Assembly: GCF_046119375.1 (NCBI RefSeq)
Contig: NW_027362767.1
Span: 137,516,001-137,580,000, forward strand
Length of the DNA: 64,000 nt
Direction: 5' to 3'
DNA from: Phyllobates terribilis
Taxonomy: Eukaryota
Below are positions 7,380 to 64,000 of the stretch, piece after piece. Below the pieces are notes generated by a model. The model was not told the origin of the DNA. It worked only from the letters and a program-made list of their open reading frames with translations, and searched no databases. The position numbers and the translations under genes were made by a program. The stretch's first letter is position 1. Every line of letters starts with the position of its first letter.

Positions 7380-9014
<1,635 letters not shown>

Positions 9015-9510: not shown

Positions 9511-10076
9511 TGTCACGCTGTCTCTGTGTACTGGAGGTAGGGGGCCTAAGCTGACCCTAAGCTGGGGCCCTGACTAATCCCTCTACCTGGAGGTACTGTT
9601 AAAGGTACAGAGGTCCAGGCCGCCAGCGTAACCCCTACCTCCTGAGGATCCCTGCACCTAAGTAATCTAGTCCTGAGAAGGACCCCTGATCACAACAAAA
9701 GGGGACAGGTAATAATATGCCCACACTCAGTACTTAGACGAACGAGACAGTACAAGGGTAAAACCAAAACCACCTTGCATACAAAAACTACACAACTACA
9801 ACAGAGGGAACACCAACGGGAAAGGAGATAAATGATAAAGCGAGGAAGGGAAAAAACACTCCAAATACACTTAGCTCTGAAACTCCAAATACCACGATCC
9901 GCTCTGTTAGTCTGCATGAAATGCTTTCACCGACACTTCCCTAACAGACCGGCAGGCATTTGAAGGAGTCCCACTACAGCAGCATTGATTGCAGCTGGGC
10001 GAGGCTGGACCTCATCTAGCACAGAGAGAGAGAGAGTTAACTCCCTCACTGCCGAAAAACACAAAGCACCAAAACC

Positions 10077-14253: not shown

Positions 14254-14913
14254 GGTAGCTGGAGAAAATCTAAGTGGTCGGTGAAAATGTCACGCTGTCT
14301 CTGTGTACTGGAGGTAGGGGGCCTAAGCTGACCCTAAGCTGGGGCCCTGACTAATCCCTCTACCTGGAGGTACTGTTAAAGGTACAGAGGTCTAGGCCGC
14401 CAGCGTAACCCCTACCTCCTGAGGATCCCTGCACCTAAGTAATCTAGTCCTGAGAAGGACCCCTGATCACAACAAAAGGGGACAGGTAATAATATGCCCA
14501 CACTCAGTACTTAGACGAACGAGACAGTACAAGGGTAAAACCAAAACCACCTTGCATACAAAAACTACACAACTACAACAGAGGGAACACCAACGGGAAA
14601 GGAGATAAATGATAAAGCGAGGAAGGGAAAAAACACTCCAAATACACTTAGCTCTGAAACTCCAAATACCACGATCCGCTCTGTTAGTCTGCATGAAATG
14701 CTTTCATCGACACTTCCCTAACAGACCGGCAGGCATTTGAAGGAGTCCCACTACAGCAGCATTGATTGCAGCTGGGCGAGGCTGGACCTGTCTAGCACAG
14801 AGAGAGAGAGAGTTAACTCCCTCACTGCCGAAAAACACAAAGCACCAAAACCTCAGCTGCGAGAAGTCAGGCTGTGTAATCGTGACGATCTTTGTGGCGA
14901 CACACCCGTGACA

Positions 14914-16328: not shown

Positions 16329-19300
16329 TGTTGTGATCTGCAACAAGAACTAAGGAAAAAAGGGGAAAGCTTTCCCTACAGTAAGACTAAGCTGAATCCC
16401 TACGATGTAGCGGGCTGCCTGTTCCAAGCGAACAGACCCGCCTTAGTACTAGGCTAGTTTGAATGAAAACCTATAGAATAAAGGGGAGGGGGCCCTAAAA
16501 GAACTAAGGACTGGAACAAAAATGGGACACCTCCTGAACAGAGAAAGTTGTTGCAGAAAACAAAAGATAAACTGACAAAAAGGTACTAGAGGTCCCAAGG
16601 GACGAAGCGAACTGAGAGATAGGCACCAAAGCACCTGGCAAGCAAAACAGTCAAACAACACTGAAGTCCAGCACAGCCAAAAAGGTGGAGATGGAATATA
16701 AAGGCAGATGGTCACATGACCGCAAAACACAAGATGGATAAAACAAACAGGAGGGTTCTAACAGTACCTCCTCTTTTAAGCGGATCCTCCGGATCCTCCA
16801 GGCCCAGGCCTATCCGGAAACCTCTTGTGGAAAGCTTTAACAAGCCTAGGAGCAGAGACATCATCCGTCCTTACCCAGGAGTTGTCTTCGGGACCGAAAC
16901 CCTTCCAGAAGACAAGATACTGTAATCTTCCTCTATGCCATCTAGAATTCAAGATACGAGAAATTTCATATTCGCCGTCTTCCACCACAGGAGGAACTGT
17001 GACAGTGGCGTCCCTATCAGATACATCAGCCTTTTTCAACAAGGAAACATGACACATATAGGATTAATCTTCCAGGAAGTAGGGGCATCCAACCTAACAG
17101 CAGACGGGTTAATAACCTGAAGCACTTTAAATGGACCCACAAACTTAGGGCCCAGTTTTTTAGAGGGAATCCTCAACCGCAGGTTTCTTGAGGACAACCA
17201 AACCATGTCACCCACAGTAAACTAAACCTCCTTCCGTTTCCTGTCAATATACTTCTTGGACTTCTTGTTAGCCTCTTGAAGGTTGCAACGTACATTAGTC
17301 CAAACTCTCTCCAAATCACCGGAAAAATTCTCCTCCTCCGGCACCGCCGACCCTAATTTGGAGAACGAACCAAAAGACGGATGTCTCCCATTACAACAAA
17401 AAAATGGAGAACACCCAGCAGAGGAGGATGTATGATTGTTAAGAACAAATTCTGCGAGAGGCAGAAACTCAGACCACCCCTCTTGATTGCCTGCCACAAA
17501 ACAACGCAAAAACTGTTCAACATCCTGGTTCTTTCTTTCAGTCTGTCCATTAGACTCAGGATGATAACCAGACGAAAATGACAAATGGACTCCCAACCTG
17601 TCACAAAAAGCACGCCAAAAGCGAGCCACAAACTGAGGTCCTCTATCAGAAACAATATCCGTGGGAATGCCATGGAGCCTGACAATCTCCTTAACCCTCA
17701 ACTGGTGATGTGGGGTTTCTTATACCCCAGTGTTTAGAAATCGCTTATTTTTATAGAAAATGCAAAGATCATGTTTGTTTTAATCGTTTTTTTATTGGCG
17801 ATTGATTACACATGAGTATAACAAATTTTTGACACCCACAAATGGATGGAAGCTAGTGAGACACGTATCCTCATACCAGCATTTTTCAATGAATGGCAGC
17901 CGAACAAAAATTCCCTGGGGTGTAGCAAACCACACCTCACCAGTTGAGGGTTAACAAACGCCTTAGCAAGTGTTTTAGCGCAGGGCAACTTAATGAATGG
18001 AACCAAATGACACATCTTACTAAAGCGGTAGACGACCACACAGATGACAGTAAAACCCTCGGACACAGGAAGGTCAGTAATAAAATCCATTGTGAGATGT
18101 GTCCAAGGCGCACTAGGAACCTCCAGAGGGCAAAGCAACCCCGCAACAGGAGTATGTGAAGCCTTTGATCTAGCACACACAGTACACTGACGCACCCACT
18201 TAATGACTTCTTTCTGCCATCCAGGCCACCAAAAACTGCGACTGATAAGTCTCTTAGTCTCAGAAATTCCTGAATGACCTGCCAACCGAGACTCATGACA
18301 CTCCACAAATACCTGAAATTCAATCAAATTTTCCCGCAAAGTAGTACTTCCTGAAAGAAATACTCCTGCAGAGCGTAAACAAGCAATACGGACGTACCTG
18401 ACCTTTTTTTTTCTTTACTTAAACGAAGCTCACAATACTTAATCAAATGGTCAGCTTTATCACAATAAAGACACAATCCCTCGGCGAACCTCTGGTCTCT
18501 TTCCTGAGAGCAGAGCGACATCGCCCCAACCTCCATTGGTTCTCCGCCGTCTGAGCAGATTTTCTGGGGACTAGGACCTGGCATTACAGGAGTCTTTACC
18601 TCATTCTGCCTAGATCTCAGCCTCCTATCCACACGAACAGCTAATTGCATGGCATCCTGCAGCGTCTCAGGTGCAGGGAGTGCAATTAGCAAATCCTTAA
18701 CCCTTGCACTCAAACCAGCAAGAAATAGACATTTCAGAGCAGGATCATTCCATCTGACTTCAGAAGCCCACCTTCTAAAGTGTGAGCAATAAATCTCAGC
18801 ATCATCTGACCCCTGATTCAAATGCCTGAGTTCTGCCTCAGCAGATGAGATTCGATCAGGATCGTCATATAATAGACCCATAGCAGAAAAAACCTCTTCT
18901 ACCGACCTCAAACATGGATCATTAGGTTGAAGAGCAAAGGCCCACCCTTGTGGTTCATTGCGCAAAAGTGACATAATAAAACTAATGTGCTGTGATTCAT
19001 TCCCAGAGGACCTTGGTCTCAAACGAAAATATAACAAACAAGCATTTTTAAAGGAAAAAAAATCTTGCTGTTTACCATAAAAAACATCCGGCAGTCCTAC
19101 CTTGGGTTCCACAAAATGTGCTCCGGAACAGCTACTCACATGTTGCTGGAGCTCGGCCACCTCTAGAGTCAACCCCTGCAAGCGTTGAGCCAAATCCTGG
19201 ACGGAAGCCATACTGATCCCCGTATTAATATTTCCTTAATTTTGTTTTTTTTGGGGGGCTGGACTTTCTGTTATGATCTGCAACAAGAACTAAGGAAAGA

Positions 19301-19703
19301 AGGGGAAAGCTTTCCCTACAGTAAGACTAAGCTGAATCCCTACGATGTAGCGGGCAGCCTGCTCCCAGCGAACAGACCCGCCTTAGTCCTAGGCTAGTCT
19401 GAACGAAGACCTATAGAATAAAGGGAAGGGGTCCCTAAAAGAACTAAGGACTGGAACAAAAAGGGACACCTCCTAAACAGGGAAAGTTGTTGCAGAAAAC
19501 AAAAGATAAACTGACAAAAAGGTACTAGAGGTCCCAGAAGGACCAAGCGAACTGAGAGATAGGCACCGAAGCACCTGGCAAGCAAAACAGTCAAACAACA
19601 CTGAAGTCCAGCACAGCCAAAAAGGCGGAGCTGGAATATAAAGACTGATGGTCAAGTGACCGCAAAACACAAGATGGAAAAAACAAACAGGAGGGTTCTA
19701 ACA
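16329..19703 (-). mobile_element. Ty3/Gypsy chromovirus element 2, internal deletion of PR-RT-RH (non-autonomous)
   Basis: 435-bp LTRs 16329-16763 and 19269-19703, perfect 5-bp TSD TTCTG, PPT AAAAGAGGAGGT; gag 19211-~18400 joined directly to integrase (HESRLAGHSG...C..C, RFSKMCH, HPESNGQTER) and chromodomain 17057-16776. Confidence 0.96.
17695..17950. mobile_element. 256-bp piggyBac-like MITE inserted in the integrase of element 2
   Basis: TTAA|CCCTCAACTGGTGA...TCACCAGTTGAGGG|TTAA; removing it restores integrase AFV-KEIVRLHGIP. Confidence 0.85.
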
Positions 19704-25575: not shown

Positions 25576-26679
25576 CATGTCCATTGATTACGAGAGATGA
25601 ACGAACGACCTGTCTGAGAAAATTCTTTCAAAGACAGTCTTCCACAGACAATATCAGTCAGTGGTCGGTCGGCTAAAACGGTTGGTCGGTCAGCTTTATT
25701 TTTAGGTTTTATAAAGAAGACGACTGATGACTGGGGAGAGGACGGACGTTCTCTTACTTCCCTTTTGAGACACCGGCTTGTAGGAGGATCTCATCTCTTT
25801 GTTCCTTAAACCAGAACAGTTATGAAGAGCTTTGATTAAATTCCCACTCCTTTGGCTACGGCTGGTGAGGTGCAGAAGGGGCCACCTGCCTGGCAGAGTG
25901 CTGAATTTACAACAAATCAGATCTTGGGAAATCTGCTGATCCTACACATGCTTAATGTAGACAGAAGCCAATAGATAATAAAAAAAATCTGCATTTGCAA
26001 AGTGTGAAGGGAACGCTCATGCGCAAGTAACACTGGCCTTAAGAGCAGCCCTTTTTGGTACACCCTCCTGACTAGTAACCTTACAACCCCTAGTAAATGG
26101 TTGATTGAGGCTTTGTGCCACTGTAAGATGTGTGGGTAGGCAAAAAAAAGGCACAACCCCCAGTATGCCACCAATCATCCTGTATTGAAGACTGGATTTT
26201 CATAATCATCCTGTCTTAATTTTGATACTAAATGGGTCAATTTTGTGTGCTGCCGTAGGACGATCCTAAAAGTCCATGTACCCGGCCAATACATATGGCC
26301 AGGGGTTATGCCCCTGTATACTCAGTCTGAGCTCAGATCCCACACTTTCCTTCTCCCCTACTCCACTTTTAGTTCTTGTCTGCTCCATCTGCGGCCGAGG
26401 CTGTCAAGATTGCAAAATCTTTGTTTATGTGGAACTATTTTTGTGATTTTTCTTTGGGGGATGGAGAGGTTGGACGTTGCACAAACTGTAGCCGCTTTGC
26501 AATGTGTTTCCTGCAGTTCCAGAGTGATCAGCGATCTACACCTTACACCGCACATTGCGAAATTTCCATTGCTCATCATCATCACCCACCAACGTGGACT
26601 GGATGATTTAATTTCTTGGACTGTGTAGAGGCAGAAGACACGCTCTACTTCTTCAAGAGTCTTGTTGAGCTCAGCTACA

Positions 26680-27744
26680 ATGTCACTCGGGGACGAGGGA
26701 CAGATGGAGAACCCTCTGGAGACTACCACTTACATAACCATCACTTATGATGAAGAACTTGTGATCTTGTGCCAAAAACAGGACAGCCACAATTTTGGGG
26801 CTTTGGTGGTGCCTGCCTTCTTCTATGTGGTCTTCATAGTCAGTCTTGTAGGCAACGGCCTCATCTTATACCTTCTACTGAAGTACGAGAACATTAAGAC
26901 GGTGACCAACTTCTTCATTCTCAACCTGGTGTTCTCCGACTTGTTGTTCACCCTCCCACTACCCTTCTGGGGTTACTACCACCGCCACCAGTGGATATTC
27001 GGGAGGACGTCTTGCAAGATGTTGGCCTCCATGTTCTACATTGGGTTTTACAGCTCCATCTTGTTCTTGACCATGATGACAGTGGATCGATACATGGCGG
27101 TTGTTCATGCCATCTATGCCACCAGGACCAGGAAGATGCTGTATGTCTATGTGGTCACTGGCTTGGTTTGGGTCATCAGCTTTTTCTCGGCCATCCCCAA
27201 GTTCATTCTGTATGGGACCAGAGAGAACGTGCTTAACAAAATGTTGGTGTGCGAGGAGACGGGCTTCATCATAGATAAGATCAATAAATGGAAGCTGGTG
27301 GGATTCTATCAGCAGGTCGTCATGTTCTTCCTGGTGCCGCTTTTCATCATCTTGTACTGTTACACACTGATCCTCATCAAGCTGAACTCTACGAAGATGC
27401 ACAACAAGAACAGGGCCATCAAGCTGATCTTCCTTATCCTTCTGGCCTTCTTCATCTGCTGGACCCCCTATAACATCATCATTTTCATCAGGGTCAGGCA
27501 GATCTCCGGGAATATTGGGGAAGATGACTGCAGTGAAACCATTGACTACGCCTTTTTCATTTGCCGGAACATCGCCTACTTCCATTGCTGCATTAACCCT
27601 TTCTTCTACACATTTGTGGGAACCAAGTTCCGTAAACACCTGTCCCAGATGATGGGGAGGTGGGTCATGTGCGGGACCAGGTACCGGCAGTCCAGCCTCA
27701 GCAGCAGGACGAGCGAATACTCCCCGCAGACCATCTACGAGTGA
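26680..27744 (+). CDS. XCR1-like chemokine receptor (class A GPCR, intronless CDS, ~346-354 aa)
   Basis: 7 TM with GN, LxxxD, DRY, CWTPYN, HCCINPFFY; XCR1-like diagnostics LKYE and ICRNIAYFHCC...FVGTKFRKHL. Start either ATG 26680 or ATG 26704; AATAAA at 27969-27974. Confidence 0.9.
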   Translation: MSLGDEGQMENPLETTTYITITYDEELVILCQKQDSHNFGALVVPAFFYVVFIVSLVGNGLILYLLLKYENIKTVTNFFILNLVFSDLLFTLPLPFWGYYHRHQWIFGRTSCKMLASMFYIGFYSSILFLTMMTVDRYMAVVHAIYATRTRKMLYVYVVTGLVWVISFFSAIPKFILYGTRENVLNKMLVCEETGFIIDKINKWKLVGFYQQVVMFFLVPLFIILYCYTLILIKLNSTKMHNKNRAIKLIFLILLAFFICWTPYNIIIFIRVRQISGNIGEDDCSETIDYAFFICRNIAYFHCCINPFFYTFVGTKFRKHLSQMMGRWVMCGTRYRQSSLSSRTSEYSPQTIYE

Positions 27745-37514: not shown

Positions 37515-40500
37515 TCACAGGGAAGCAATGCCTGCCGCAGACAGGATTGTGAGCGCCAGTACGATGTAGCCAGTCTGGTACACCTCAGGGATCTTAAAGC
37601 CTTTGCCGAGGTCCCAGGCCTGCGGAAAAGAGGAGATGGTCACTGATCAGCTCTACTCCAGTTACATCCAAAGCTGCATTGTCATTGCCGCCCTCTGCTC
37701 TAGCGATGTTACTCTCCCAAGATGAGTAGATGCAGCTTTGGCTGTGACTAGAGCACGAAGCATCTAGGCCAATACCCGCACTCACCAGGTGGCGAATGCC
37801 GTTCAACGTGTGATACATGACGGGGAAAGCGATGGCGAACTTGGCAGAGTAGATGAGCGCTGGGCCGAGGCTCAGAGACTTGATGAGGTCCAGGTATGAG
37901 GCGTAATCTCCGGGGAGGACCAAGGCGGCCAGGCCGAACAGCGACACACCTGAGAATGAGAGGCCGATCATACAAGGCGGAGGGGCTTGTGGTGACCCCC
38001 TCTGTGCACATGGTGTAATACAGAACAAATATGGCCACCACCCAGTCTCTGGCACTCACCAGCGCTCAGGGCAATGCCCGTTCCTCTGTGCGTGATGGAC
38101 ATCATCATGGGCAAAGACCATCTGTGAGGAGAAAACAGCCGGCGGTCAGTAACCAGGAGACTCACGTCCTCAGCGCCAGTCACATCCAGAGCTGCACTCA
38201 CAATTCTGCAGATTTCATCTCACTGCTGGCCCCCTGCAGTACAGTGTATATTACGGGGGATTTAGTCACATACTGTGCTGCACTTATTAATTACTGCCTT
38301 CCTGTCAGCCCTCAGGATCAGGGAGCACCGTACACACTACATCTCCCACTGTGCAATGCATCATGGGAGCTCCCATGTCCCAGGAAATTGCTCTTCATGC
38401 AGTTGTCGGACAGTGGACAGAACATGCATTATATACACGGCTGGGATTCGGGTGGGCTTTTAGTATACTCCGCTTTATTTTGGGGTCACGATGGGGAAAA
38501 CACAAAATCTAGATCCAAAATTAGCCAAAGCTGTAGATATAAAGGGCGAGCGATGCCAGCGGCGGTGGGTGGGGGGCAGCGATGGCACATTCTCCGGTGG
38601 GGATGGTGTCAGGAATGCTGTGAGGGGGAGCCGCCGCCATCCTCACCCCTCGTCTCACATAGCAGGGTCATTCATAGGGCCGGTATGTGAGGCGGGGGAG
38701 GAACAATGCAGCCGCCGGCCCGGCACTTGCTGAAGGGACAACTTTCCCTGGCACAGGGCATGGTGATGCCCACCTAGTGCCACTGAGGAATGTCTGCTGC
38801 TGGGTCCTGGAGGAGCGGGCCGTGCAGGCGACCATATTGGATATTTCTAGTATCTTACTTATAGATAGAGATGTGGGGCGACAAGGGGCGGCTCAACCGG
38901 GTGTTCTTGTCCCAGAAGCGATCCATCTCCTGCTTGGCCGATGTCCCCATGGGAACAGCGCTGAAAAGAACGAGGACGACGTTAGCAGCGACAATGAAGA
39001 TCACACACCAGGAGTGGAGGACCCCTCTAAATCAGCATCTTGGGGTTCTGTCACAGGACGGCGATCGTCCATAGCGGGGGCACTTACTTTCGGAGGCACA
39101 GGCCCGGGCGCAGCGGGGAGCTCAGGCATCGCCACGCGCTGTGTCTGATGGGGGAAGCAGAATTCCAGGTCACACAAGAAACAAAGCGGCTTAGGGGCAT
39201 GAGGAAGGTGTCCACACCATAGTACAGACCAAAAGTTTGGACACACCTCATTTCAAGATTTTTCTGAATTTTCACGACTATGAAAATTGTACATTCACAC
39301 TGAAGGCATCAAAACTATGAATTAACACATGTGGAATTATATACTTAACAAAAAAAGTGTGAAACAACTGAAAATATGTCTTATATTCTAGGTTCTTCAT
39401 AGTAGCCACCTTTTGCTTTGATGACTGCTTTGCACACTCTTGGCATTCTCTTGATGAGCTTCAAGAGGTAGTCACCGGAAATGGTCTCCCAACAATCTTG
39501 AAGGAGTTCCCAGAGATGCTTAGCACTTGTTGGCCCTTTTGCCTTCACTCTGCGGTCCAGCTCACCCCAAACCATCTCGATTGGGTTCAGGTCTGGTGAC
39601 TGTGGAGGCCAGGTCATCTGGCGTAGCATCCCATCACTCTCCTACTTGGTCATATAGCCCTTACACAGCCTGGAGGTGTGTTTGGGGTCATTGTCCTGTT
39701 GAAAAAATAAATGATGGTCCAACTAAACGCAAACAGGATGGAATAGCATGCTGCTGCAAGATGCTGTGGTAGCCATGCTGGTTCAGTATGCCTTCAATTT
39801 TGAATAAATCCCCAACAGTGTCACCAGCAAAGCCCCCCCACACCATCACACCTCCTCCTCCATGCTTCACGGTGGGAACCAGGCATGTAGAGTCCATCCG
39901 TTCACCTTTTCTGCGTCGCACAAAGACACGGTGGTTGGAACCAAAGATCTCAAATTTGGACTCATCAGACCAAAGCACAGATTTCCACTGGTCTAATGTC
40001 CATTCCTTGTGTTCTTTAGCCCAAACAAGTCTCTTCTGCTTGTTGCCTGTCCTTAGCAATGGTTTCCTAGCAGCTATTTTACCATGAAGGCCTGCTGCAC
40101 AAAGTCTCCTCTTAACAGTTGTTGTAGAGATGTCTGCTGCTAGAACTCTGTCTGGCATTGACCTGGTCTCTAATCTGAGCTGCTGTTAACCTGCGATTTC
40201 TGAGGCTGGTGACTCGGATAAACTTATCCTCAGAAGCAGAGGTGACTCTTGGTCTTCCTTTCCTGGGGCGGTCCTCATGTGAGCCAGTTTCTTTGTAGCG
40301 CTTGATGGTTTTTGCAACTGCACTTGGGGACACTTTCCAAGTTTACCCAATTTTTTCAGACTGACTGACCTTCATTTCTTAAAGTAATGATGGCCACTCG
40401 TTTTTCTTTACTTAGCTGCTTTTTTCTTGCCATAATACAAATTCTAACAGTCTATTCAGTAGGACTATCAGCTGTGTATCCACCTGACTTCTGCTCAACA

Positions 40501-41210: not shown

Positions 41211-41394
41211 CTTCACCCAGTGACGTTACCGCCCCGGACACGCGCGCATTAGTGTCGTCAGCCGTGTTGTCATTGGCCGAATCCAGAGGAAGGCGTGGTT
41301 ATAGACTGGGGGGCGGATCTACGGGAGAAGGGAGTCATGTGACTGTAAGTCTGTAACCATGGCAACCACTGGCACCAAACGGAATGTCAGCAGA

Positions 41395-44110
41395 ACAGTA
41401 TCACACATGATGGATTAGATACACCAGGACAGTATCACACATGATGGATTAGATATACCAGGGCAGTATCACACATGGTGGATTAGATATACCAGGGCAG
41501 TATCATACATGGTGGATTAGATATACCAGGACAGTATCACACATGGTGGATTAGATATACCAGGACAGTATCACACATGATGGATTAGATATACCAGGGC
41601 AGTATCACACATGGTGGATTAGATACACCAGGGCAGTATCACACATGGTGGATTAGATACACCAGGGCAGTATCACACATGGTGGATTAGATACACCAGG
41701 ACAGTATCACACATGATGGATTAGATACACCAGGGCAGTATCACACATGGTGGATTAGATACACCAGGACAGTATCACACATGATGGATTAGATACACCA
41801 GGACAGTATCACACATGATGGATTAGATACACCAGGACAGTATCACACATGATGGATTAGGTACACCAGGGCAGTATCACACATGGTGGATTAGATATAC
41901 CAGGACAGTATCACACATGATGGATTAGATATACCAGGACAGTATCACACATGATGGATTAGATACACCAGGACAGTATCACACATGATGGATTAGATAC
42001 ACCAGGGCAGTATCATACATGGTGGATTAGATATACCAGGACAGTATCACACATGATGGATTAGATACACCAGGGCAGTATCATACATGGTGGATTAGAT
42101 ACACCAGGACAGTATCACACATGATGGATTAGATACACCAGGACAGTATCACACATGATGGATTAGATACACCAGGGCAGTATCATACATGGTGGATTAG
42201 ATATACCAGGACAGTATCACACATGATGGATTAGATACACCAGGGCAGTATCATACATGGTGGATTAGATACACCAGGACAGTATCACACATGGTGGATT
42301 AGATACACCAGGGCAGTATCACACATGATGGATTAGGTACACCAGGGCAGTATCACACATGGTGGATTAGATATACCAGGACAGTATCACACATGATGGA
42401 TTAGATACACCAGGACAGTATCACACATGATGGATTAGATACACCAGGACAGTATCACACATGATGGATTAGATATACCAGGGCAGTATCATACATGGTG
42501 GATTAGATACACCAGGACAGTATCACACATGATGGATTAGATACACCAGGGCAGTATCATACATGGTGGATTAGATACACCAGGACAGTATCACACATGA
42601 TGGATTAGATACACCAGGACAGTATCACACATGATGGATTAGATACACCAGGGCAGTATCACACATGGTGGATTAGATATACCAGGGCAGTATCACACAT
42701 GGTGGATTAGATATACCAGGACAGTATCACACATGATGGATTAGATACACCAGGGCAGTATCACACATGGTGGATTAGATACACCAGGACAGTATCACAC
42801 ATGATGGATTAGATACACCAGGACAGTATCACACATGATGGATTAGATATACCAGGACAGTATCACACATGATGGATTAGATACACCAGGACAGTATCAC
42901 ACATGGTGGATTAGATATACCAGGACAGTATCACACATGATGGATTAGATACACCAGGGCAGTATCACACATGGTGGATTAGATACACCAGGGCAGTATC
43001 ACACATGATGGATTAGATACACCAGGACAGTATCACACATGATGGATTAGATATACCAGGGCAGTATCACACATGGTGGATTAGATATACCAGGACAGTA
43101 TCACACATGATGGATTAGATACACCAGGGCAGTATCACACATGGTGGATTAGATACACCAGGGCAGTATCACACATGATGGATTAGATATACCAGGACAG
43201 TATCACACATGATGGATTAGATATACCAGGACAGTATCACACATGATGGATTAGATACACCAGGACAGTATCACACATGATGGATTAGATACACCAGGAC
43301 AGTATCACACATGATGGATTAGATATACCAGGACAGTATCACACATGATGGATTAGATACACCAGGACAGTATCACACATGATGGATTAGATACACCAGG
43401 GCAGTATCACACATGGTGGATTAGATATACCAGGGCAGTATCACACATGGTGGATTAGATATACCAGGACAGTATCACACATGATGGATTAGATACACCA
43501 GGGCAGTATCACACATGGTGGATTAGATACACCAGGACAGTATCACACATGATGGATTAGATACACCAGGACAGTATCACACATGATGGATTAGATACAC
43601 CAGGACAGTATCACACATGATGGATTAGATATACCAGGACAGTATCACACATGATGGATTAGATACACCAGGGCAGTATCACACATGGTGGATTAGATAC
43701 ACCAGGGCAGTATCACACATGATGGATTAGATACACCAGGACAGTATCACACATGATGGATTAGATACACCAGGACAGTATCACACATGATGGATTAGAT
43801 ACACCAGGACAGTATCACACATGATGGATTAGATACACCAGAGCAGTATCACACATGGTGGATTAGATATACCAGGACAGTATCACACATGATGGATTAG
43901 ATACACCAGGGCAGTATCACACATGGTGGATTAGATACACCAGGGCAGTATCACACATGATGGATTAGATACACCAGGGCAGTATCACACATGGTGGATT
44001 AGATACACCAGGGCAGTATCACACAAGATGGATTAGATACACCAGGTTAGTATCACACATGATGGATTAGATACACCAGGGCAGTATCACATGATGGATT
44101 AGATACACAT
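41395..44110. repeat. 34-bp minisatellite (GGACAGTATCACACATGATGGATTAGATACACCA), about 80 copies
   Basis: Very homogeneous tandem array between SDHC and MPZ starts. Confidence 0.98.
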
Positions 44111-44169
44111 GGTAGGATGAGATACAGTCTTTATATCCCTGGTGGTCTCTTTGCCCCATGCTGCCCCCT

Positions 44170-44290
44170 GGTGCCTGGTCTCATTGTCTCCATTGTTCGC
44201 TCCTCTTCCCCCTCCTGTGATTGGTCGTCTGTGGGGGAGATGATTTCCCTTCCTCCCCTTTGGGGTTTTTAAGGCCGGATCCCGCTCTCC
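44170..44290 (+). promoter_or_regulatory. Candidate MPZ proximal promoter
   Basis: Two SOX-type CATTGT sites (44182, 44191), ATTGG at ~44220, TTTTAAG at ~44267, within 200 nt of the ATG. Motif matches only. Confidence 0.4.
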
Positions 44291-51364: not shown

Positions 51365-54300
51365 TAATTATACTGCCTCCTATGTACAAGAATATAACTA
51401 CTATAATACTGCCTCCTATGTACAAGAATATAACTACTATAATACTGCTCCTATGTACAAGAATATAGCTACTATAATACTGCTCCTATGTACAAGAATA
51501 TAGCTACTATAATACTGCTCCTATGTACAAGAATATAACTACTATAATACTGCCCCCTATGTACAAGAATATATCTACTATAATACTGCCCCTATATACA
51601 AGAATATAACTACTATAATACTGCCCCATGTACAAGAATATAACTACTATAATACTGCCCCTATGTACAAGAATATAACTACTATAATACTGACCACTAT
51701 GTACAAGAATATAACTACTATAATACTGCCCCTATGTACAAGAATATAACTACTATAATACTGCTCCTATGTACAAGAATATAGCTACTATAATACTGCT
51801 CCTATGTACAAGAATATAACTACTATAATACTGCCCCCTATGTACAAGAATATATCTACTATAATACTGCCCCTATATACAAGAATATAACTACTATAAT
51901 ACTGCCCCATGTACAAGAATATAACTACTATAATACTGCCCCTATGTACAAGAATATATCTACTATAATACTGCCCCTATATACAAGAATATAACTACTA
52001 TAATACTCCCCCTATGTACAAGAATATAACTACTATAATACTGCCCCATGTACAAGAATATAACTACTATAATACTGCTCCTATGTACAAGAATATAACA
52101 ACTATAATACTGCTCCTATGTACAAGAATATAACTACTATAATACTGCCCCTATGTACAAGAATATAACTACTATAATACTGCTCCTATGTACAAGAACA
52201 TAACTACTATAATACTGCCCCCTATGTACAAGAATATAACTACTATAATACTGCCCCTATGTACAAGAATATAACTACTATAATACTGCCCCTATATACA
52301 AGAATATAACTACTATAATACTGCCCCTATGTACAAGAATATAACTACTATAATACTGCCCCATGTACAAGAATATAACTACTATAATACTGCCCCTATG
52401 TACAAGAATATAACTACTATAATACTGCCCCTATGTACAAGAATATAACTACTATAATACTGCCTCCTATGTACAAGAATATAACTACTATAATACTGCT
52501 CCTATGTACAAGAATATAGCTACTATAATACTGCTCCTATGTACAAGAATATAGCTACTATAATACTGCTCCTATGTACAAGAATATAACTACTATAATA
52601 CTGCCCCCTATGTACAAGAATATATCTACTATAATACTGCCCCTATATACAAGAATATAACTACTATAATACTGCCCCATGTACAAGAATATAACTACTA
52701 TAATACTGCCCCTATGTACAAGAATATAACTACTATAATACTGACCACTATGTACAAGAATATAACTACTATAATACTGCCCCTATGTACAAGAATATAA
52801 CTACTATAATACTGCTCCTATGTACAAGAATATAGCTACTATAATACTGCTCCTATGTACAAGAATATAACTACTATAATACTGCCCCCTATGTACAAGA
52901 ATATATCTACTATAATACTGCCCCTATATACAAGAATATAACTACTATAATACTGCCCCATGTACAAGAATATAACTACTATAATACTGCCCCTATGTAC
53001 AAGAATATATCTACTATAATACTGCCCCTATATACAAGAATATAACTACTATAATACTCCCCCTATGTACAAGAATATAACTACTATAATACTGCCCCAT
53101 GTACAAGAATATAACTACTATAATACTGCTCCTATGTACAAGAATATAACAACTATAATACTGCTCCTATGTACAAGAATATAACTACTATAATACTGCC
53201 CCTATGTACAAGAATATAACTACTATAATACTGCTCCTATGTACAAGAATATAACTACTATAATACTGCCCCCTATGTACAAGAATATAACTACTATAAT
53301 ACTGCCCCTATGTACAAGAATATAACTACTATAATACTGCCCCTATGTACAAGAATATAACTACTATAATACTGCTCCTATGTACAAGAATATAACTACT
53401 ATAATACTGCCCCCTATGTACAAGAATATATCTACTATAATACTGCCCCTATATACAAGAATATAACTACTATAATACTGCCCCTATGTACAAGAATATA
53501 ACTACTATAATACTGCCCCATGTACAAGAATATAACTACTATAATACTGCCCCTATGTACAAGAATATAACTACTATAATACTGCCCCTATGTACAAGAA
53601 TATAACTACTATAATACTGCTCCTATGTACAAGAATATAACTACTATAATACTGCTCCTATGTACAAGAATATAACTACTATAATACTGCCCCTATGTAC
53701 AAGAATATAACTACTATAATACTGCCCCATGTACAAGAATATAACTACTATAATACTGCCCCTATGTACAAGAATATATCTACTATAATACTGCCCCTAT
53801 ATACAAGAATATAACTACTATAATACTGCCCCTATGTACAAGAATATAACTACTATAATACTGCCCCATGTACAAGAATATAACTACTATAATACTGCCC
53901 CTATGTACAAGAATATAACTACTATAATACTGCCCCTATGTACAAGAATATAACTACTATAATACTGCTCCTATGTACAAGAATATAACTACTATAATAC
54001 TGCTCCTATGTACAAGAATATAACTACTATAATACTGCCCCTATGTACAAGAATATAACTACTATAATACTGCCCCATGTACAAGAATATAACTACTATA
54101 ATACTGCCCCTATGTACAAGAATATATCTACTATAATACTGCCCCTATATACAAGAATATAACTACTATAATACTGCCCCTATGTACAAGAATATAACTA
54201 CTATAATACTGCCCCATGTACAAGAATATAACTACTATAATACTGCCCCTATGTACAAGAATATAACTACTATAATACTGCCCCTATGTACAAGAATATA

Positions 54301-57300
54301 ACTACTATAATACTGCTCCTATGTACAAGAATATAACTACTATAATACTGCCCCCTATGTACAAGAATATATCTACTATAATACTGCCCCTATATACAAG
54401 AATATAACTACTATATTACTGCCCCTATGTACAAGAATATAACTACTATAATACTGCCCCATGTACAAGAATATAACTACTATAAAACTGCCCCTATGTA
54501 CAAGAATATAACTACTATAATACTGCCCCTATGTACAAGAATATAACTACTATAATACTGCTCCTATGTACAAGAATATAACTACTATAATACTGCCCCC
54601 TATGTACAAGAATATATCTAATATAATACTGCCCCTATATACAAGAATATAACTACTATAATACTGCCCCTATGTACAAGAATATAACTACTATAATACT
54701 GCCCCATGTACAAGAATATAACTACTATAATACTGCCCCTATGTATAAGAATATAACTACTATAATACTGTCCTCTATATACAAGAATATAACTACTATA
54801 ATACTGTTATGATCTGCTACAGAGACTAAGGAAAGACAGGAGATCTGTCCCTACAATAGAACTAAACTAGATCCCTACAATGTAACGGGGAACCTGATCC
54901 TGCGATCAGACCCGCTAAAGTCCTCGGCTAGTCTGTACGAAGACCTATAGATGTGAGGGAGGAATCCCTACAAGAACTAGGGACTGGGAAAAGTTGGACA
55001 CCTCCTAGCAGAAATCGTAGCAGTCAAAGACAAACACACAACAAAAAGTAAAGAGGTCAGAAGACCTAGCAAAACTAACAGAGAACGGCAACAGAGCACC
55101 AAGTTAGCTCAACAGTAGTAAATACAAATGAAGTCCAGCAATGCCAGGAGGGCGGAGCCGGATTAAATAGGCAAAACTGGTCATGTGACCAGCAAACTAA
55201 AAAAAACCTAACAGGAGAGTTGTAACAAATACTGCCCCTATGTACAAGAATATAACTACTATAATACTGCTCCCTATGTACAAGAATATAACTACTATAA
55301 TACTGCCCCTATGTACAAGAATATAACTACTATAATACTGCCTCCTATGTACAAGAATATAACTACTATAATACTGCTCCTATGTACAATAATATAACTA
55401 CTATAATACTGCTCCTATGTACAAGAATATAACTACTATAATACTGCCCCCTATGTACAAGAATATAACTACTATAATACTGCTCTTATGTACAATAATA
55501 TAACTACTATAATACTGCCCCTATGTACAAGAATATAACTACTATAATACTGCTCCTATGCACAAGAATATAACTAATATAATACTGCTCCTCTGTACAA
55601 GAATATAACTACTATAATACTGCTCCTATGTACTAGAATATATCTACTATAATACTGCCCCCTATGTACAGTACAAGAATATAACTACTATAATACTGTC
55701 CCCTATGTACAAGAATATAACTACAATAATACTGCCCCTATGTACAAGAATATAACTACTATAATACTGCTCCTATGTACAAGAATATACCTACTATAAT
55801 ACTGCCCCCTATGTACAAGAATATACTTACTATAATACTGACTCTGTGTACAAGAATATAACTACTACAATACTGCCCCCTAGGTGCAAGAATATAACTA
55901 CTATAATACTGCCCCCTGTGTACAAGAATATAACTAATATGATAATGTCCCCATGTACAAGAATATAACTACTATGATACTGTCCCCATGTACAAGAATA
56001 TAACTACTATAATACTGCTCCTATGTAGAAGAATATAACTACTATAATACTGCCCCCTATGCACAAGAATATAACTACTATAATACTGCCCCCTATGTAC
56101 AAGAATATAACTACTATAATACTGCCCCCTATGTACAAGAATATAGTTACTATAATACTGCCCCTATGTACAAGAATATAACTACTATAATACTGCTCCT
56201 ATGTACAAGAATATACCTACTATAATACTGCCCCCTATGTACAAGAATATAACTACTATAATACTGCCCCCTATGTACAAGAATATAACTACTAAAATAC
56301 TGCTCCTATGTACAAGAATATAACTACTATAATACTGCTCCTATGTACAAGAATATACCTACTATAATACTGCCCCCTATGTACAAGAATATACTTACTA
56401 TAATACTGCCCCCTACGTACAAGAATATAACTACTATAATACTGCCCCCTACGTACAAGAATATAACTACTATAATACTGCCCCCTGTGTACAAGAATAT
56501 AACTAATATGATACTGTCCCCATGTACAAGAATATAACTACTATGATACTGTCCCCATGTACAAGAATATAACTACTATAATACTGCTCCTATGTAGAAG
56601 AATATAACTACTATAATACTGCTCCTATGTACAAGAATATAACTACTATAATACTGCCCCTATGTACAAGAATACAACTACTATAATACTGTCCCCATGT
56701 ACAAGAATATAACTACTATGATACTGTCCCAATGTACAAGAATATAACTACTATAATACTGCTCCTATGTAGAAGAATATAACTACTATAATACTGCCCC
56801 CTATGTACAAGAATATAACTATATAATACTGCGCTCTATGTACAGTACAAGAATATAACTACTATAATACTGCCCCCTATGTACAAGAATATAACTACTA
56901 TAATACTGCTCCTATGTACAAGAATATAACTACTATAATACTGCTCCTATGTACAAGAATATACCTACTATAATACTGCCCCCTATGTACAAGAATATAC
57001 TTACTATAATACTGCCCCTGTGTACAAGAATATAACTACTACAATACTGCCCCCTATGTACAAGAATATAACTACTATAATACTGCCCCGTGTGTACAAG
57101 AATATAACTAATATGATACTGTCCCCATGTATAAGAATATAACTACTATGATACTGTCATCATGAACAAGAATATAACTACTATAATACTGCCCCCTATG
57201 TAGAAGAATATAACTACTATAATACTGCTCCTATGTACAAGAATATAACTACTATAATACTGCTCCTATGTACAAGAATATAACTACTATAATACTGCCC

Positions 57301-60300
57301 CCTATGTACAAGAATATACCTACTATAATACTGCCCACTATGTACAAGAATATAACTACTATAATACTGCCCCCTATGTACAAGAATATAACTACTATAA
57401 TACTGCTCCTATGTACAAGAATATAACTACTATAATACTGCTCCTATGTACAAGAATATACCTACTATAATACTGCCCCCTATGTACAAGAATATACTTA
57501 CTATAATACTGCCCCCTATGTACAAGAATATAACTACTATAATACTGCCCTCTATGTACAAGAATATAACTACTATGATACTGTCCCTGTGTACAAGAAT
57601 ATACCTACTACAATACTGCCCCCTATGTACAAGAATACAACTACTATAATACTGCTCCTATGTACAAGAATATAACTACTATAATACTGCCCCCTGTGTA
57701 CAAGAATATAACTAATATGATACTGTCCCCATGTACAAGAATATAACTACTATGATACTGTCCCCATGTACAAGAATATAACTACTATAATACTGCTCCT
57801 ATGTAGAAGACTATAACTACTATAATACTGCTCATATGTACAAGAATATAACTACTATAATACTGCCCCTATGTACAAGAATATAACTACTATAATACTG
57901 TCCCCATGTACAAGAATATAACTACTATGATACTGTCCCCATGTACAAGAATATAACTACTATAATACTGCCCCCTATGTACAAGAATATAACTACTATA
58001 ATACTGCTCCCTATGTACAAGAATATAACTACTATAATACTGCCCCTATGTACAAGAATATAACTACTATAATACTGCTCCTATGTACAAGAATATACCT
58101 ACTATAATACTGCCCACTATGTACAAGAATATAACTACTATAATACTGCCCCCTATGTACAAGAATATAACTACTATAATACTGCTCCTATGTACAAGAA
58201 TATAACTACTATAATACTGCTTCTATGTACAAGAATATACCTACTATAATACTGCCCCCTATGTACAAGAATATACTTACTATAATACTGCCCCCTATGT
58301 ACAAGAATATAACTACTTTAATTCTGCCTTCTATGTACAAGAATATAACTACTATGATACTGCCCCTGTGTACAAGAATATACCTACTACAATACTGCCC
58401 CCTATGTACAATAATACAACTACTATAATACTGCTCCTATGTACAAGAATATAACTACTATAATACTGCCCCCTGTGTACAAGAATATAACTAATATGAT
58501 ACTGTCCCCATGTACAAGAATATAACTACTATAATACTGCCCCCTGTGTACAAGAATATAACTAATATGATACTGTCCCCATGTACAAGAATATAACTAC
58601 TATAATACTGCCCCCTGTGTACAAGAATATAACTACTATAATACTGCTCCCTATGTACAAGAATATAACTACTATAATACTGCTCCTATGTAGAAGAATA
58701 TAACTACTATAATACTGCTCCTATGTACAAGAATATAACTACTATAATACTGCTCCTATGTACAAGAATATAACTACTATAATACTGCTCCTATGTACAA
58801 GAATATAACTACTATAATACTGCCCTCTATGTACAGTACAAGAATATAACTACAATAATACTGCCCCTATGTACAAGAATATAACTACTATAATACTGCT
58901 CCTATGTACAAGAATATAACTACTATAATACTGCTCCTATGTACAAGAATATACCTACTATAATACTGCCCCCTATGTACAAGAATATACTTACTATAAT
59001 ACTGACCCTGTGTACAAGAATATAACTACTACAATACTGCCCCCTATGTGCAAGAATATAACTACTATAATACTGCCCCCTGTGTACAAGAATATAACTA
59101 ATATGATACTGTCCCCATGTACAAGAATATAACTACTATGATACTGTCCCCATGTACAAGAATATAACTACTATAATACTGCTCCTATGTAGAACAATAT
59201 AACTACTATAATACTGCTCCTATGTACAAGAATATAACTGCTATAATACTGCCCCTATGTACAAGAATACAACTACTATAATACTGTCCCCATGTACAAG
59301 AATATAACTGCTATGATACTGTCCCCATGTACAAGAATATAGCTACTATAATACTGATCCTATGTAGAAGAATATAACTACTATAATACTGCCCCCTATG
59401 TACAAGAATATAACTACTATAATACTGCCCCCTATGTACAAGAATATAACTACTATAATACTGCCCCCTATGTACAAGAATATAGTTACTATAATACTGC
59501 CCCTATGTACAAGAATATAACTACTATAATACTGCTCCTATGTAGAAGAATATACCTACTATAATACTGCCCCCTATGTACAAGAATATAACTACTATAA
59601 TACTGCCCCCTATGTACAAGAATATAACTACTATAATACTGCTCCTATGTACAAGAATATAACTACTATAGTACTGCTCCTATGTACAAGAATATACCTA
59701 CTATAATACTGCCCCCTATGTACAAGGATATACTTACTATAATACTGCCCCCTACGTACAAGAATATAACTACTATAATACTGCCCCCTACGTACAAGAA
59801 TATAACTACTATAATACTGCCCCCTGTGTACAAGAATATAACTAATATGATACTGTCCCCATGTACAAGAATATAACTACTATGATACTGTCCCCATGTA
59901 CAAGAATATAACTACTATAATACTGCTCCTATGTAGAAGAATATAACTACTATAATACTGCCCCTATGTACAAGAATATAACTACTATAATACTGTCCCC
60001 ATGTACAAGAATATAACTACTATGATACTGTCCCCATGTACAAGAATATAACTACTATAATACTGCTCCTATGTAGAAGAATATAACTACTATAATACTG
60101 CTCCTATGTACAAGAATATAACTACTATAATACTGCCCCTATGTACAAGAATACAACTACTATAATACTGTCCCCATGTACAAGAATATAACTACTATGA
60201 TACTGTCCCCATGTACAAGAATATAACTACTATAATACTGCTCCTATGTAGAAGAATATAACTACTATAATACTGCCCCCTATGTACAAGAATATAAGTA

Positions 60301-60447
60301 TATAATACTGCCCTCTATGTACAGTACAAGAATATAACTACTATAATACTGTCCCCTATGTACAAGAATATAACTACTATAATACTGCCCCCTATGTACA
60401 AGAATATAAGTACTATAATACTGCTCCCTATGTACAAGAATATAACT
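51365..60447. repeat. ~9-kb array of the 35-36 bp CTATGTACAAGAATATAACTACTATAATACTGCCCC minisatellite
   Basis: Roughly 240 copies, interrupted by a solo LTR and ended by a Gypsy insertion. Confidence 0.99.
54805..55227 (-). mobile_element. Solo LTR (423 bp) related to Gypsy element 2
   Basis: TGTTATGATCTGC...TGTAACA, perfect 5-bp TSD AATAC; collinear similarity to 16329-16763. Confidence 0.93.
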
Positions 60448-61662
60448 TGTAGCATCGGCGTCTCTGTCCCGTTCTAGGCAGAGACGCCGTCCCTCTCACC
60501 TCCCCGCTCCTGGCGCGGCGTCCTCCAGCGCTTCTCTCCCCGCTGCTTCCGGCACGCGCTCCTTCCCCGGCAGTGTGCTTAGGGCGCGCGCGCGCTCCCC
60601 CTCTCTTAAAGGGACCGCGCGCGCCGTCCTAAGGAGTCCCCGGCCAATTGCCGGAGGACCTCCCATATAAAAGGCACCTCCTCCAAAATGGAGGTGCCCG
60701 AGCAATGTTGTAGCACTGTTCACTACTCTGCTTCAGCCCTCAGGTCCCGTTGCCAGTTACCTGCCAGATACCTGCCAGATTCCTGCCAGTCTGCTGTCTA
60801 ATTCCTGCCTGATATCCTGCTACCTGCCTGCTAGCCTGAGGTCCGACGGTCTGCCCTCCAACTTCTGTCAGTCTGTCTAAGGACCAGCTTGCCCGCTCAC
60901 CTGGGAGCGCACATCTTCTACCTGCCTGCTTGCCTGAGGTCCGACGGTCTGCCTTCCAACTCCTGTCAGTCTGTCTAAGGACCAGCTTGCCCGCTCACCT
61001 GGGAGCGCACATCTTCTACCTGCCTGCTTGCCTGAGGTCCAACGGTCTGCCTTCCAACTCCTGTCAGTCTGTCTAAGGACCAGCTTGCCCGCTCACCTGG
61101 GAGCGCTCATCTGCTGCCTGTCTGCTAGCCTACCAGGAGGCTCTGCCGTCACGTGCTGTGACCACCCGCCTGTCCAGAGACTCCTGCCCGCTCACCTGGG
61201 AGCGCTCATCTGCTACCTGTCTGTTGGTCTTCCTGGAGGCTCCGCCGTCACATGCTGTGACCACCCGTTTATCCAGAGACTCTCGCCTGCTCACCTGGGA
61301 GCTCACGTCTATCATCTGCCGCCACAGGTCGTACCAATCCTTTACCCAGAGACTGCCCCGGTCACTTGCCGTGACCTCCTGCCCGTTCATCCAGAGACTG
61401 CCCCGGTCACTTGCCGTGACCTCCTGCCCGTTCATCCAGAGACTGCCCCGGTCACTTGCCGTGACCTCCTGCCCGTTCATCCAGAGACTGCCCCGGTCAC
61501 TTGCCGTGACCTCCTGTCCGTTCATTCAGAGACTGTCCCAGTCACCTGCTGTGACTGCCTGCCCGTCTACCCTGGTCGCCACCCGCTCCCTTACAAGGAC
61601 CGCCCCCTTGTATAGTAGCTCAGAGGTTCCGCCTCCCAGACCCGTTACAGTTTGCTCGGGCC

Positions 61663-62613
61663 ATGGAACCCGGTGGCACCCAAGCTCCCTCGCTCTCGGA
61701 CCTGTGTCATGAACTGTCCCGTCAGAGGTCCCAACAGGAGTCCATCCTGGGTCACCTGCGGAATGTCAATTCTCGCCTGGACACTCTGACTGCTCTGCCT
61801 GCAACCACCGCCAGTGCCATGACTCGCAATCCGGCAGCTCCACTGCCCACTAATAACATGGTATCCTACCCCGGACCCCGGCTTTCTGCACCTCCTCGTT
61901 TCGGAGGCGACTCCGCCCAGGCTCGGGGCTTCATAAATCAGTGCACCCTGCACTTTGAACTCCTGTCTCACCAGTTTAACTCCGACCGGGCCAAAATTGC
62001 CTTCATCATGTCCCATCTCACCGGGGAGGCCCTGGCCTGGCTAAATCCTCTATGGGAGAGAGGAGACCCCCTGGTGTCCGACTTGCCTGCCTTTCTCACG
62101 GCTTTCCGGAAAGTCTTCGACGAACCCGGACGGAAGACCTCATCCGCATCATCTCTGCTACACCTCCGTCAGGGAAGTCTCACCGTGGGCCAATATGCCA
62201 TACGGTTCCGTACCCTTGCCTCGGAGCTGGCCTGGGATAATGACGCTCTGGTTTCCGTCTTCTGGGAGGGTCTGTCCGGCCGTATTAAAGATGAACTTGC
62301 CGGTCGGGACATTCCTACCACTCTCGATGACCTTATAACTCTTGCCACCCGGATTGACCTGCGGTTCCAGGAGCGTGCCAAAGAGGTCACCCGTGAGAGG
62401 AGGGTTCCACGTCTAGCTCCTACTTTCCAGAAACCCGTCACTCCCTCCGTCTCTCCTCAGCTACACTCTCCTGAGCCTATGCAGGTCGACCAGACCAAGA
62501 TGGTCGGTTCTCGCCAAGAATCTCGCCGAGCCGAGGGAAGCTGTTTCTATTGTGGCAGTATGAAGCACTTCATCCGTTCCTGCCCGGAAAAACCGGGAAA
62601 CGCCAGTGTCTAG
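61663..62613 (+). CDS. Gag of Gypsy element 3 (316 aa, intact)
   Basis: PPRFGGDS capsid start, [14 protein letters not shown] knuckle. Confidence 0.94.
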
Positions 62614-64000
62614 GACCACTCGGAGAGGTCGTCCTAGACAAAAGTAAGCCCTCTCCGTCTCTGACCTTACCGGTCTCTATTGCTTGGGGAGAGAACCGTC
62701 TCTTTGAACTCGCCCATCTGGATTCTGGAGCTGCTGGAAACCTCATCTCCCAGTCTCTGGTAGAGAGATACCATATTCCCACCAAGTCCTTGGCTGAACC
62801 ATTGTCAGTCGCCTCCGTTGATGGAAGACTTCTCTCGGAGACCATCCTGCTCGTCACCGAACCCATAACCCTGCAGGTGGGAATGCTGCACTCTGAGGAG
62901 ATCTCATTCCATGTGCTGTCCGGACTTTCTCACTCCCTGTTGCTAGGTCTACCTTGGCTCCAGACACATGAACCCGTATTGAACTGGCGGTCCGGTGAAG
63001 TACTCCGATGGGGTCCTGACTGCCATAGGACCTGCCTGGTCCCAGTCCGTCCACTTCGCCCTCAGCCTACTCCAGCTAACTTACCTGGTCTCCCGGCTCC
63101 CTACTGGCCCTATGCGGACGTCTTCGGTAAGAAGGAAGCTGAGACGTTGCCACCCCATAGGCCATACGATTGCCCGATCGACCTGGTACCTGGCACCACT
63201 CCTCCCCGTGGGCGTATCTACCCGTTGTCTGCAGCCGAGACCCGAGCCATGTCTGAGTACATTGAAGAGAATCTGGCTAGGGGATTTATCCGAAAATCTA
63301 CCTCCCCGGCTGGAGCCGGATTCTTCTTTGTCAAAAAGAAAGACGGCTCGCTACGTCCCTGTATTGACTACAGAGGACTCAATCTCATCACGGTAAAAAA
63401 CAAATATCCCCTGCCACTCATCTCCGAATTGTTTGACCGTCTCAAGGGCGCCAGGATCTTCTCCAAGCTGGATCTACGAGGAGCGTATAATCTGGTCCGT
63501 ATCCGTCAAGGAGACGAGTGGAAGACGGCATTCAATACCCGGGACGGTCACTACGAGTACCTTGTGATGCCCTTCGGTCTCTGTAATGCTCCCGCGGTCT
63601 TTCAGGAACTAGTCAACGACATCTTCCGTGACCTCCTGTACTCCTGCGTAGTGGTATACCTGGACGATATCTTGGTCTTCTCTCCGGATCTCCCCACACA
63701 CCGGAGGGATGTTCGTCAGGTCCTGCTTACGCTTCGGCAGAACCACCTTTACGCCAAATACGAGAAGTGCCTCTTCGATCAGACCTCCCTTCCGTTCTTG
63801 GGCTATGTCATCTCCCAAACAGGTCTGCAAATGGATCCCGAGAAGCTCTCTTCCGTTCTAAAATGGCCTCGTCCTGAAGGTTTGAAGGCGATACAGCGAT
63901 TCCTGGGCTTCGCTAATTATTATCGTCTTTTCATCCCACACTTCTCGTCTCGGACTGCTCCCATATCTGCACTTACCCGTAAGGGGTCTAACCCCAGGAC
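62601..64000 (+). CDS. Pol of Gypsy element 3 (protease + RT), open to window end, reached by -1 frameshift
   Basis: Manual translation from 62601: HLDSGAAGN protease, [54 protein letters not shown] with no stop in ~466 codons (absent from ORF track because it has no stop in the window). Confidence 0.92.

Follow-up and report, generated by a model that had tools for sequence, protein, structure and literature searches.

A chromodomain Ty3/Gypsy retrotransposon of Phyllobates terribilis that likely primes reverse transcription with the first nucleotides of its own RNA

How an LTR retrotransposon starts to copy its RNA when its primer-binding site (PBS) offers no place to a tRNA is the question raised by element 3, a Ty3/Gypsy element which runs over the end of a 64,000-nt stretch of DNA of Phyllobates terribilis (assembly GCF_046119375.1, contig NW_027362767.1, positions 137,516,001 to 137,580,000), called the window hereafter. 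A sequence-only reading of the window had proposed that this element primes itself, that is, that a decamer lying shortly after a TATA box in the 5' LTR pairs with a PBS between the LTR and gag. The coordinates it gave for TATAAAA, for the decamer GCCCGAGCAA and for its complement (Table 1) are right throughout, no tRNA-type TGG is present at the PBS, and the position of the PBS, 2 nt past the LTR end (61649) and 1 nt before the gag ATG (61663), was verified by LTR ends that were set independently from the 3' LTR and the TAACT target duplication in the neighbouring stretch (L031). Element 3 is an intact chromodomain Ty3/Gypsy element and very likely primes its reverse transcription in the manner of Tf1, using the 10 nt at the 5' end of its own capped transcript, a reading which we hold with high confidence. 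Self-priming of this kind is not new, since passages of PMC10085805 and PMC6317226 give it as a hallmark by which the Tf1/sushi group is known in both fungi and vertebrates, and because the mechanism is already known, the finding of self-priming as such is ordinary. What the copies of this and related families have kept of the copying process is described below.

Element 3 is a full-length chromodomain Ty3/Gypsy retrotransposon in which both gag and pol are open. It is completed by the adjoining stretch and amounts to 6,622 bp, with the structure of a Ty3/Gypsy chromovirus: two TG...CA LTRs, a target duplication and a polypurine tract. The Pfam domains stand in the Ty3/Gypsy order of gag, protease, RT, RNase H and integrase, and a chromodomain (PF00385, E 1.3e-12) lies at the integrase C-terminus of pol, at residues 1070-1117 of 1184. 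The best PDB match of pol is Ty3 Gag-Pol (E 1.9e-131) and the only PDB match of gag is PEG10, which belongs to a sushi-ichi-related gene family according to a passage of PMC4340606. This copy is young though not new. Activity, which the sequence-only reading had suggested, is at most a possibility: the frames are open, but the 5' and 3' LTRs already differ by 2 substitutions and one 4-bp indel. Copies of the family differ in LTR length, between about 850 and 1200 bp. A self-priming family with a different layout from the -1 frameshift of element 3 (L096, L097, L100 and related copies) joins gag and pol in one frame of about 1499 aa, and its LTRs are 99.9-100% alike.

Table 1. Features of element 3 and of related elements used for comparison; positions are those of the window unless a neighbouring or sampled stretch (L) is given
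Feature	Position	Strand	Remarks
Target site duplication TAACT, 5 bp	60443..60447	+	within 35-nt minisatellite; second copy at L031:7070-7074, after the 3' LTR
5' LTR, 1202 bp, TG...CA ends	60448..61649	+	paired with the 3' LTR
3' LTR, 1206 bp	L031:5864-7069		outside the window; 99.5% alike to the 5' LTR
TATA box TATAAAA	60666..60672	+	putative promoter
9-bp hairpin, z = -6.2	60673..60698	+	spans the predicted U3/R border and includes the first 3 primer bases
GGT directly upstream of the predicted start	60693..60695	+	its complement ACC recurs after the PBS in other copies
Predicted self-primer GCCCGAGCAA	60696..60705	+	putative 5'-terminal 10 nt of the RNA; begins at TATA+30 on a pyrimidine/purine step
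Internal LTR tandem repeats	60751..61566	+	units of 11, 98, 99 and 45 nt
GGTTCC	61625..61630	+	could form a helix with GGAACC at 61665-61670, a candidate for one flank of the 'pretzel'; 34 of 300 shuffles as good, not significant alone
Spacer GT, 2 nt	61650..61651	+	has its mirror in the AC that separates the polypurine tract from the 3' LTR
PBS TTGCTCGGGC	61652..61661	+	exact reverse complement of 60696-60705
Single C after the PBS, before ATG	61662	+	would face the RNA cap
gag, 316 aa	61663..62613	+	Retrotrans_gag, Ty3_capsid; CCHC knuckle from the translation
Slippery heptamer GGGAAAC	62595..62601	+	pol in -1 frame; putative frameshift
pol, start of 1184-aa open frame	62475..64000	+	ends at L031:6029; protease, RT, RNase H, integrase, SH3, chromodomain
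Element 1 PBS TTCACCGAC	14277..14285	-	LTRs 14288-14913 and 9511-10137; second family, for comparison
Element 2 PBS AAGTCCAGC	19258..19266	-	primer match 19604-19612, TATA-like 19635-19642
Palindromic insertions, element-1 family	L283:6773-7616, L285:2186-3029, L286:1531-2366, L284:6773-7146

The TATA box is the sole TATAAAA within 60401-61700, and GCCCGAGCAA begins 30 nt past its first T. The match between this decamer and the PBS is exactly 10 nt long and extends on neither side; a 10-nt complement anywhere in the 1202-nt LTR was found in 3 of 2000 dinucleotide shuffles, a count into which the position at TATA+30 does not enter. This distance and the pyrimidine/purine step fit an RNA 5' end at the primer, the start itself being predicted from the sequence. 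In addition, the 3' LTR is preceded by a purine tract and then AC, which mirrors the GT spacer, as would be expected if the 3' end of the primer sits at 61652.

The sequence-only reading had counted three unrelated sequences with the same layout in the window and had suggested that tRNA-independent priming is the norm. The layout is indeed common to all three, with 9-nt matches in elements 1 and 2, but the elements are not unrelated: the RTs of elements 1 and 3 are 66% identical, and only the primer and PBS letters differ. In element 1 the primer copy is damaged in the 5' LTR and intact in the 3' LTR. The survey of PBS-LTR complementarity that had been called for was run on sampled stretches, namely another 80 stretches of 10 kb taken around hits to gag, RT, SH3, chromodomain and integrase, which are not a random sample. 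LTR ends were called from paired repeats and target duplications; 41 of 83 stretches gave an LTR pair, and the other 42, including the element adjoining element 3 and L108, gave no LTR pair with target duplication; the end of L108 came from a separate result. After exclusion of two pairs with mis-called ends (L134 and L136) and with a non-chromodomain pair (L159) set aside as control, 38 chromodomain pairs remain. A perfect 9-12-nt match between the PBS and the element's own LTR is present in 34 of these, the other four being damaged at the same site, and TGG at the PBS start is present in none of the 38, while the PBS of the control, whose RT is 32% identical, starts with TGG and has no 9-nt LTR match. 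Self-priming is well supported by these counts from a non-random sample, and as a reading it is again not new.

Each of the ten families recognized in the survey matches its own LTR. Their representatives carry nine different PBS sequences with matches of 9-10 nt, and shuffles as good as the own match numbered 0-9 of 2000 per family; matches across families do not exceed 8 nt, except for two families that share one PBS and for their 9-nt match to the LTR of L121. These families are not fully independent, because they are related (RT identity 58-88% among the nine representatives with an RT). The spacer is 2 nt and the primer starts with G after a pyrimidine in all ten, and TATAWAW with at most one mismatch stands 28-31 nt upstream of the primer in seven, the TATA being weak in the other three. 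In one family an A/T change in the PBS is paired with a T/A change in the primer in all 11 copies readable at both sites, which is probably one ancestral event. In predicted folds of the natural leader the probability of primer:PBS pairing is 0.69 for element 3, 0.95-0.99 in five other families and at most 0.14 in the remaining four. The central duplex of the 'pretzel' is predicted in six of the ten families, and the two flanking helices are mostly no better than shuffles. A hairpin at the U3/R border was also considered as a general feature and was rejected, since it is strong in only two of ten families: strong hairpins over part of the primer were found at 60673-60698 in element 3 (z -6.2) and at 19604-19633 of the minus strand in element 2 (z -4.9), and no strong one was found in the eight other families.

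According to a passage of PMC10085805, members of the Tf1/sushi group, which occurs in fungi, vertebrates and some plants, commonly prime themselves, with a 'pretzel' of three duplexes, and a range of self-priming from yeast to vertebrates is also stated in passages of PMC6317226 and PMC4600332; by the wording of the latter two, self-priming is demonstrated for Tf1 and 'implicated' or predicted elsewhere. Tf1 and Tf2 of Schizosaccharomyces pombe, as well as Tj1, Tosmo1-3 and Tcry1, are like element 3 chromodomain Ty3/Gypsy elements with a PBS complementary to the predicted RNA 5' end and without a tRNA site (parts of PMC10085805, PMC4600332 and PMC7175516). The Tf1 primer is the first 11 nt of the RNA, cut by RNase H (passage of PMC7175516), and in the ten families described here the primer is 9-10 nt. 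Furthermore, gag and pol of element 3 overlap in the -1 frame with GGGAAAC, whereas the fission-yeast elements have single-ORF or in-frame-stop layouts (passage of PMC10085805), and the element 3 family has at least 17,705 copies as against 13 of Tf2 in the S. pombe laboratory strain (passage of PMC11042837). Element 3 also differs from Tf1 and Tf2 in the approximately 950 nt with tandem repeats which lie between primer and PBS. Amphibian elements are reportedly included in the work of Butler et al. from 2001, in which priming is said to be inferred from complementarity. Within the vertebrate part of the Tf1/sushi group, that is, pufferfish sushi-ichi with its relatives and the 'Fungi/Vertebrates' chromovirus cluster of GyDB, self-priming and the 'pretzel' were proposed too (parts of PMC10085805 and PMC6317226). 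The PEG10 match of gag is no more than a lead towards the sushi group; of the Sushi motifs in Table 3 of PMC3601003, CNTNACA fits the 3' end of the element 3 LTR and TGTYANR does not fit its 5' end. By its sequence, element 3 very probably belongs to the Tf1/sushi group. Chromoviruses of the plant Tcn1 clade and the copia element TAR likewise lack a tRNA PBS, and self-priming was predicted for them from sequence (passage of PMC6317226); they live in different hosts, and TAR belongs also to a different superfamily.

In element 3 priming would take the following course. RNA polymerase II would start at G60696, the 5' decamer of the RNA would pair with the PBS about 950 nt downstream, RT/RNase H would cut after nucleotide 10, and the freed 3' end would copy the GT spacer, U5 and R. 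Plus-strand strong-stop DNA would later copy the primer, which is still attached, and probably the cap too, so that PBS plus C would be written. Reverse transcriptases can copy the m7G cap as C, and this joint copying of primer and cap is proposed as the reason why a C follows the PBS in every family. The C is present in ten of ten families and is nearly invariant within three of them, the counts of copies with C and of copies with another base being 17,705 and 126 (in register downstream) in the element 3 family, 5,499 and 22 in the element-1 family and 1,164 and 15 in the ATCWGAGCGC family. In the element-1 family the letters after this C take about ten forms among the 100 matches listed first. 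Across families the primer is preceded by T or C, and the C after the PBS is not complementary to this base; an invariant C is what copying of the RNA cap would predict. The non-C copies show an excess of A (46 of the 100 matches listed, of 126), which was considered as a scar and rejected, the control position being confounded by one-base deletions; moreover, this A is not templated by the LTR, because A dominates (10 of 15) in a family that has mostly C upstream of the primer.

Genome-wide pattern counts in the 10.6-Gb assembly were prompted by a copy (L166) with two extra complementary bases after the PBS. The exact PBS junction of element 3 is present in 17,705 copies, and in 126 copies the first base after the PBS is not C and the downstream letters stay in register. 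Those with a non-C base and then C number 96, all of which were listed, and 94 of them read AC. These 94 comprise 74 in which ACC replaces CAT, one with ACC and a further change, 11 with ACC that realign as a 2-nt insertion, one with ACC before TGG, three with AC only, one with a 13-nt complement of U3, and three others, so ACC stands in 87 of 94. The letters ACC are complementary to 60693-60695, which directly precede the primer. As against the 74 ACC copies, the other 26 in-register triple changes after the PBS amount to one copy in total, which is the single copy that the 18 triple changes with G or T in second place give. The control count at the matching LTR site gave no triple changes, and for this reason the transfer is one-way, from the LTR to the far side of the PBS. 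In a gag tree of 86 copies (two of 88 rows with too little gag were left out) the 28 ACC tips need 22 changes, compared with 23.9 +/- 1.8 for shuffled labels, and several ACC tips pair with ordinary copies at support 0.98-1.0. The ACC change thus recurs, since ACC copies are scattered over the tree, while some ACC copies are local duplicates (e.g. L245-L248) and an old ACC variant could have been spread over the tree by recombination between subfamilies. A downstream GGCACC was tried as the source of ACC and was rejected, because ACC is present in four copies without it.

On this sequence pattern, the ACC letters are probably scars left by the copying process. A longer copied end would have arisen in about 0.5% of insertions, most likely from a start 2 nt upstream (60694) together with a C templated by the cap, and ACC written after the PBS would usually remove the gag start codon. 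Start-site choice decides whether Tf2 RNA can be copied (passage of PMC5341516). Neither the -2 nor the -3 base of element 3 gives a pyrimidine/purine start. An ACC-type scar was found in none of 1,179 copies of the ATCWGAGCGC family, in which about five would be expected at the rate of the element 3 family. In the small families the junction variants (1, 4, 3 and 4 matches) are too few to separate cap copying from a start at -3, and one copy of the element-1 family (L272) reads ACC where its -3 base is A, the third letter being ambiguous. The scars support an RNA self-primer and do not prove it, because a DNA fold-back could make them whatever the primer is.

Products of such fold-back are present in the element-1 family, where inverted U3 follows at five of the 22 non-C junctions. 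Four of the five are palindromic insertions of LTR, PBS and inverted U3, each with its own 5-bp target duplication (Table 1); three are 836-844 bp long and one, with an internal deletion, is about 375 bp. The fifth (L347) was considered as a simple palindrome and turned out to be a complex rearrangement. In the three long palindromes the inverted arm differs from the insertion's own U3 at 0, 0 and 9 positions and from the U3 of the others at 3-26, and because each arm is closest to its own U3, they likely arose separately. Their PBS end would have folded back on the primer sequence of its own strand and copied U3. One copy of the element 3 family has a 13-nt complement of U3 after the PBS and then rejoins gag via a short shared stretch. 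In Tf1, a single-stranded PBS end persists on about half of the cDNA, and the RT adds untemplated bases (passage of PMC11042837). Junctions at which an LTR and all or part of the PBS are followed by apparently unrelated DNA (L009, L277, L299, L305, G000:C11:280310034 and C46:7138619) resemble these retained PBS ends of Tf1 as a part of PMC11042837 describes them.

If a host tRNA fragment or another small RNA primed at the PBS, the match to the LTR would be a by-product or a regulatory helix. Half-tRNA priming does occur in plant Ty1/copia lineages (passage of PMC6317226), and the host tRNA comparison was limited to tRNA-Lys: the host set had 63 matches in two clusters, and the loci examined yielded tRNA-Lys alone, in 19 variants, against which the best PBS match is 7 nt. 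That short match, the nine PBS sequences that each track their own LTR and the lack of a TGG start in all 38 pairs go against a host primer, and so do the LTR bases from upstream of the primer that are written after the PBS, which it leaves unexplained; we regard it as very improbable. Chance or ordinary chromosomal mutation, whether palindrome correction or one old variant that spread, is scarcely credible as the source of the 10-nt match and the ACC variant. The families are related and so not fully independent, and some ACC copies are duplicates, but the shuffles per family, the missing reciprocal change in the LTR, the near absence of other triple changes and the unclustered ACC tips of the gag tree all go against it.

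A more serious alternative accepts that the element primes itself and, in place of a longer RNA primer whose cap is copied, derives ACC from plus-strand DNA which folds back onto its own R start and stalls after three bases at the U3/R hairpin. The four palindromic insertions of the element-1 family are full fold-back products, and one copy of the element 3 family has the 13-nt anti-U3 extension. The U3/R hairpin of the element 3 family is strong, and its 96 variants include no full palindrome, all of which suits a stall. However, a stall should give a spread of lengths, yet ACC accounts for nearly all AC copies, and the C after the PBS in ten of ten families with T or C upstream of the primer is left unexplained, so we consider this route rather unlikely.

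With RNA self-priming as the preferred reading, the genome may be seen as a fossil record of the process in a vertebrate-type element, a tentative interpretation to which we give slightly less than even credence. RNA copied through to the cap would fix the C after every PBS, starts 2 nt upstream would repeatedly overwrite the gag start codon with ACC, and strong-stop DNA would fold back and integrate as a palindromic element of about 840 bp that ends in U3 on both sides; this by-product would be peculiar to self-priming elements and maybe suppressed by a U3/R hairpin. If this is true, start sites and primer lengths can be read from genome sequence alone, and the predictions are precise: RNA should start mainly at 60696 and to a minor extent at 60694, and its cap should be copied. 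If the scars and palindromes hold up, they are in vivo evidence for self-priming in an animal, and the element 3 family, with more than 17,000 copies, supplies traces of copying at population scale, such as the LTR-to-PBS transfer, beside palindromic insertions with duplications. The palindromes would also be a route from LTR retrotransposons to short inverted-repeat elements, which annotation might take for derivatives of DNA transposons. In the open-licence literature, as far as titles or abstract beginnings tell, no account was found of recurring upstream-complement scars, of an invariant C after the PBS or of palindromic LTR-PBS-U3 insertions, and no paper on amphibian cases, fold-back products or cap copying in Tf1/sushi-type elements; this silence is weak evidence that the scar, the C and the palindromes are novel.

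Element 3 lies tail to tail with a full-length sister element (L031:7077 to L092:3440), 7 bp away and in a minisatellite more than 9 kb long. The sister is about 85% identical, has the same PBS and primer, and has LTRs 97.7% alike. The two insertion points are 2 nt apart, as the target duplications TAACT and ACTAC overlap. A target preference for the minisatellite was considered and rejected, the minisatellite being absent from the upstream flanks of the other 29 loci. Minisatellite arrays of 34-nt and 35-nt units occupy about 41255-44200 and 51370-60447 of the window. Elsewhere in the assembly, RT hits about 5 kb apart on one strand (G000:C2:866921838-866932788, C1:179059619-179069715 and C3:730102805-730108607) suggest tandem elements sharing an LTR. 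Small contigs (L062-L091 and others, about C2700-C8300) carry nearly all of the best Retrotrans_gag and SH3_Tf2-1 matches, which score above chromosomal copies and are possibly foreign DNA in the assembly. Other features of the window are Tc1/mariner-type transposase pieces at 7706-8284 (plus) and 22508-23143 (minus), an open frame at 37594-38055 (minus) that matches Sdh_cyt (PF01127, E 2.3e-07) and is perhaps a processed or partial copy of a succinate dehydrogenase subunit, and a single-frame rhodopsin-family GPCR at 26629-27744 (plus; 7tm_1, E 1.8e-58).
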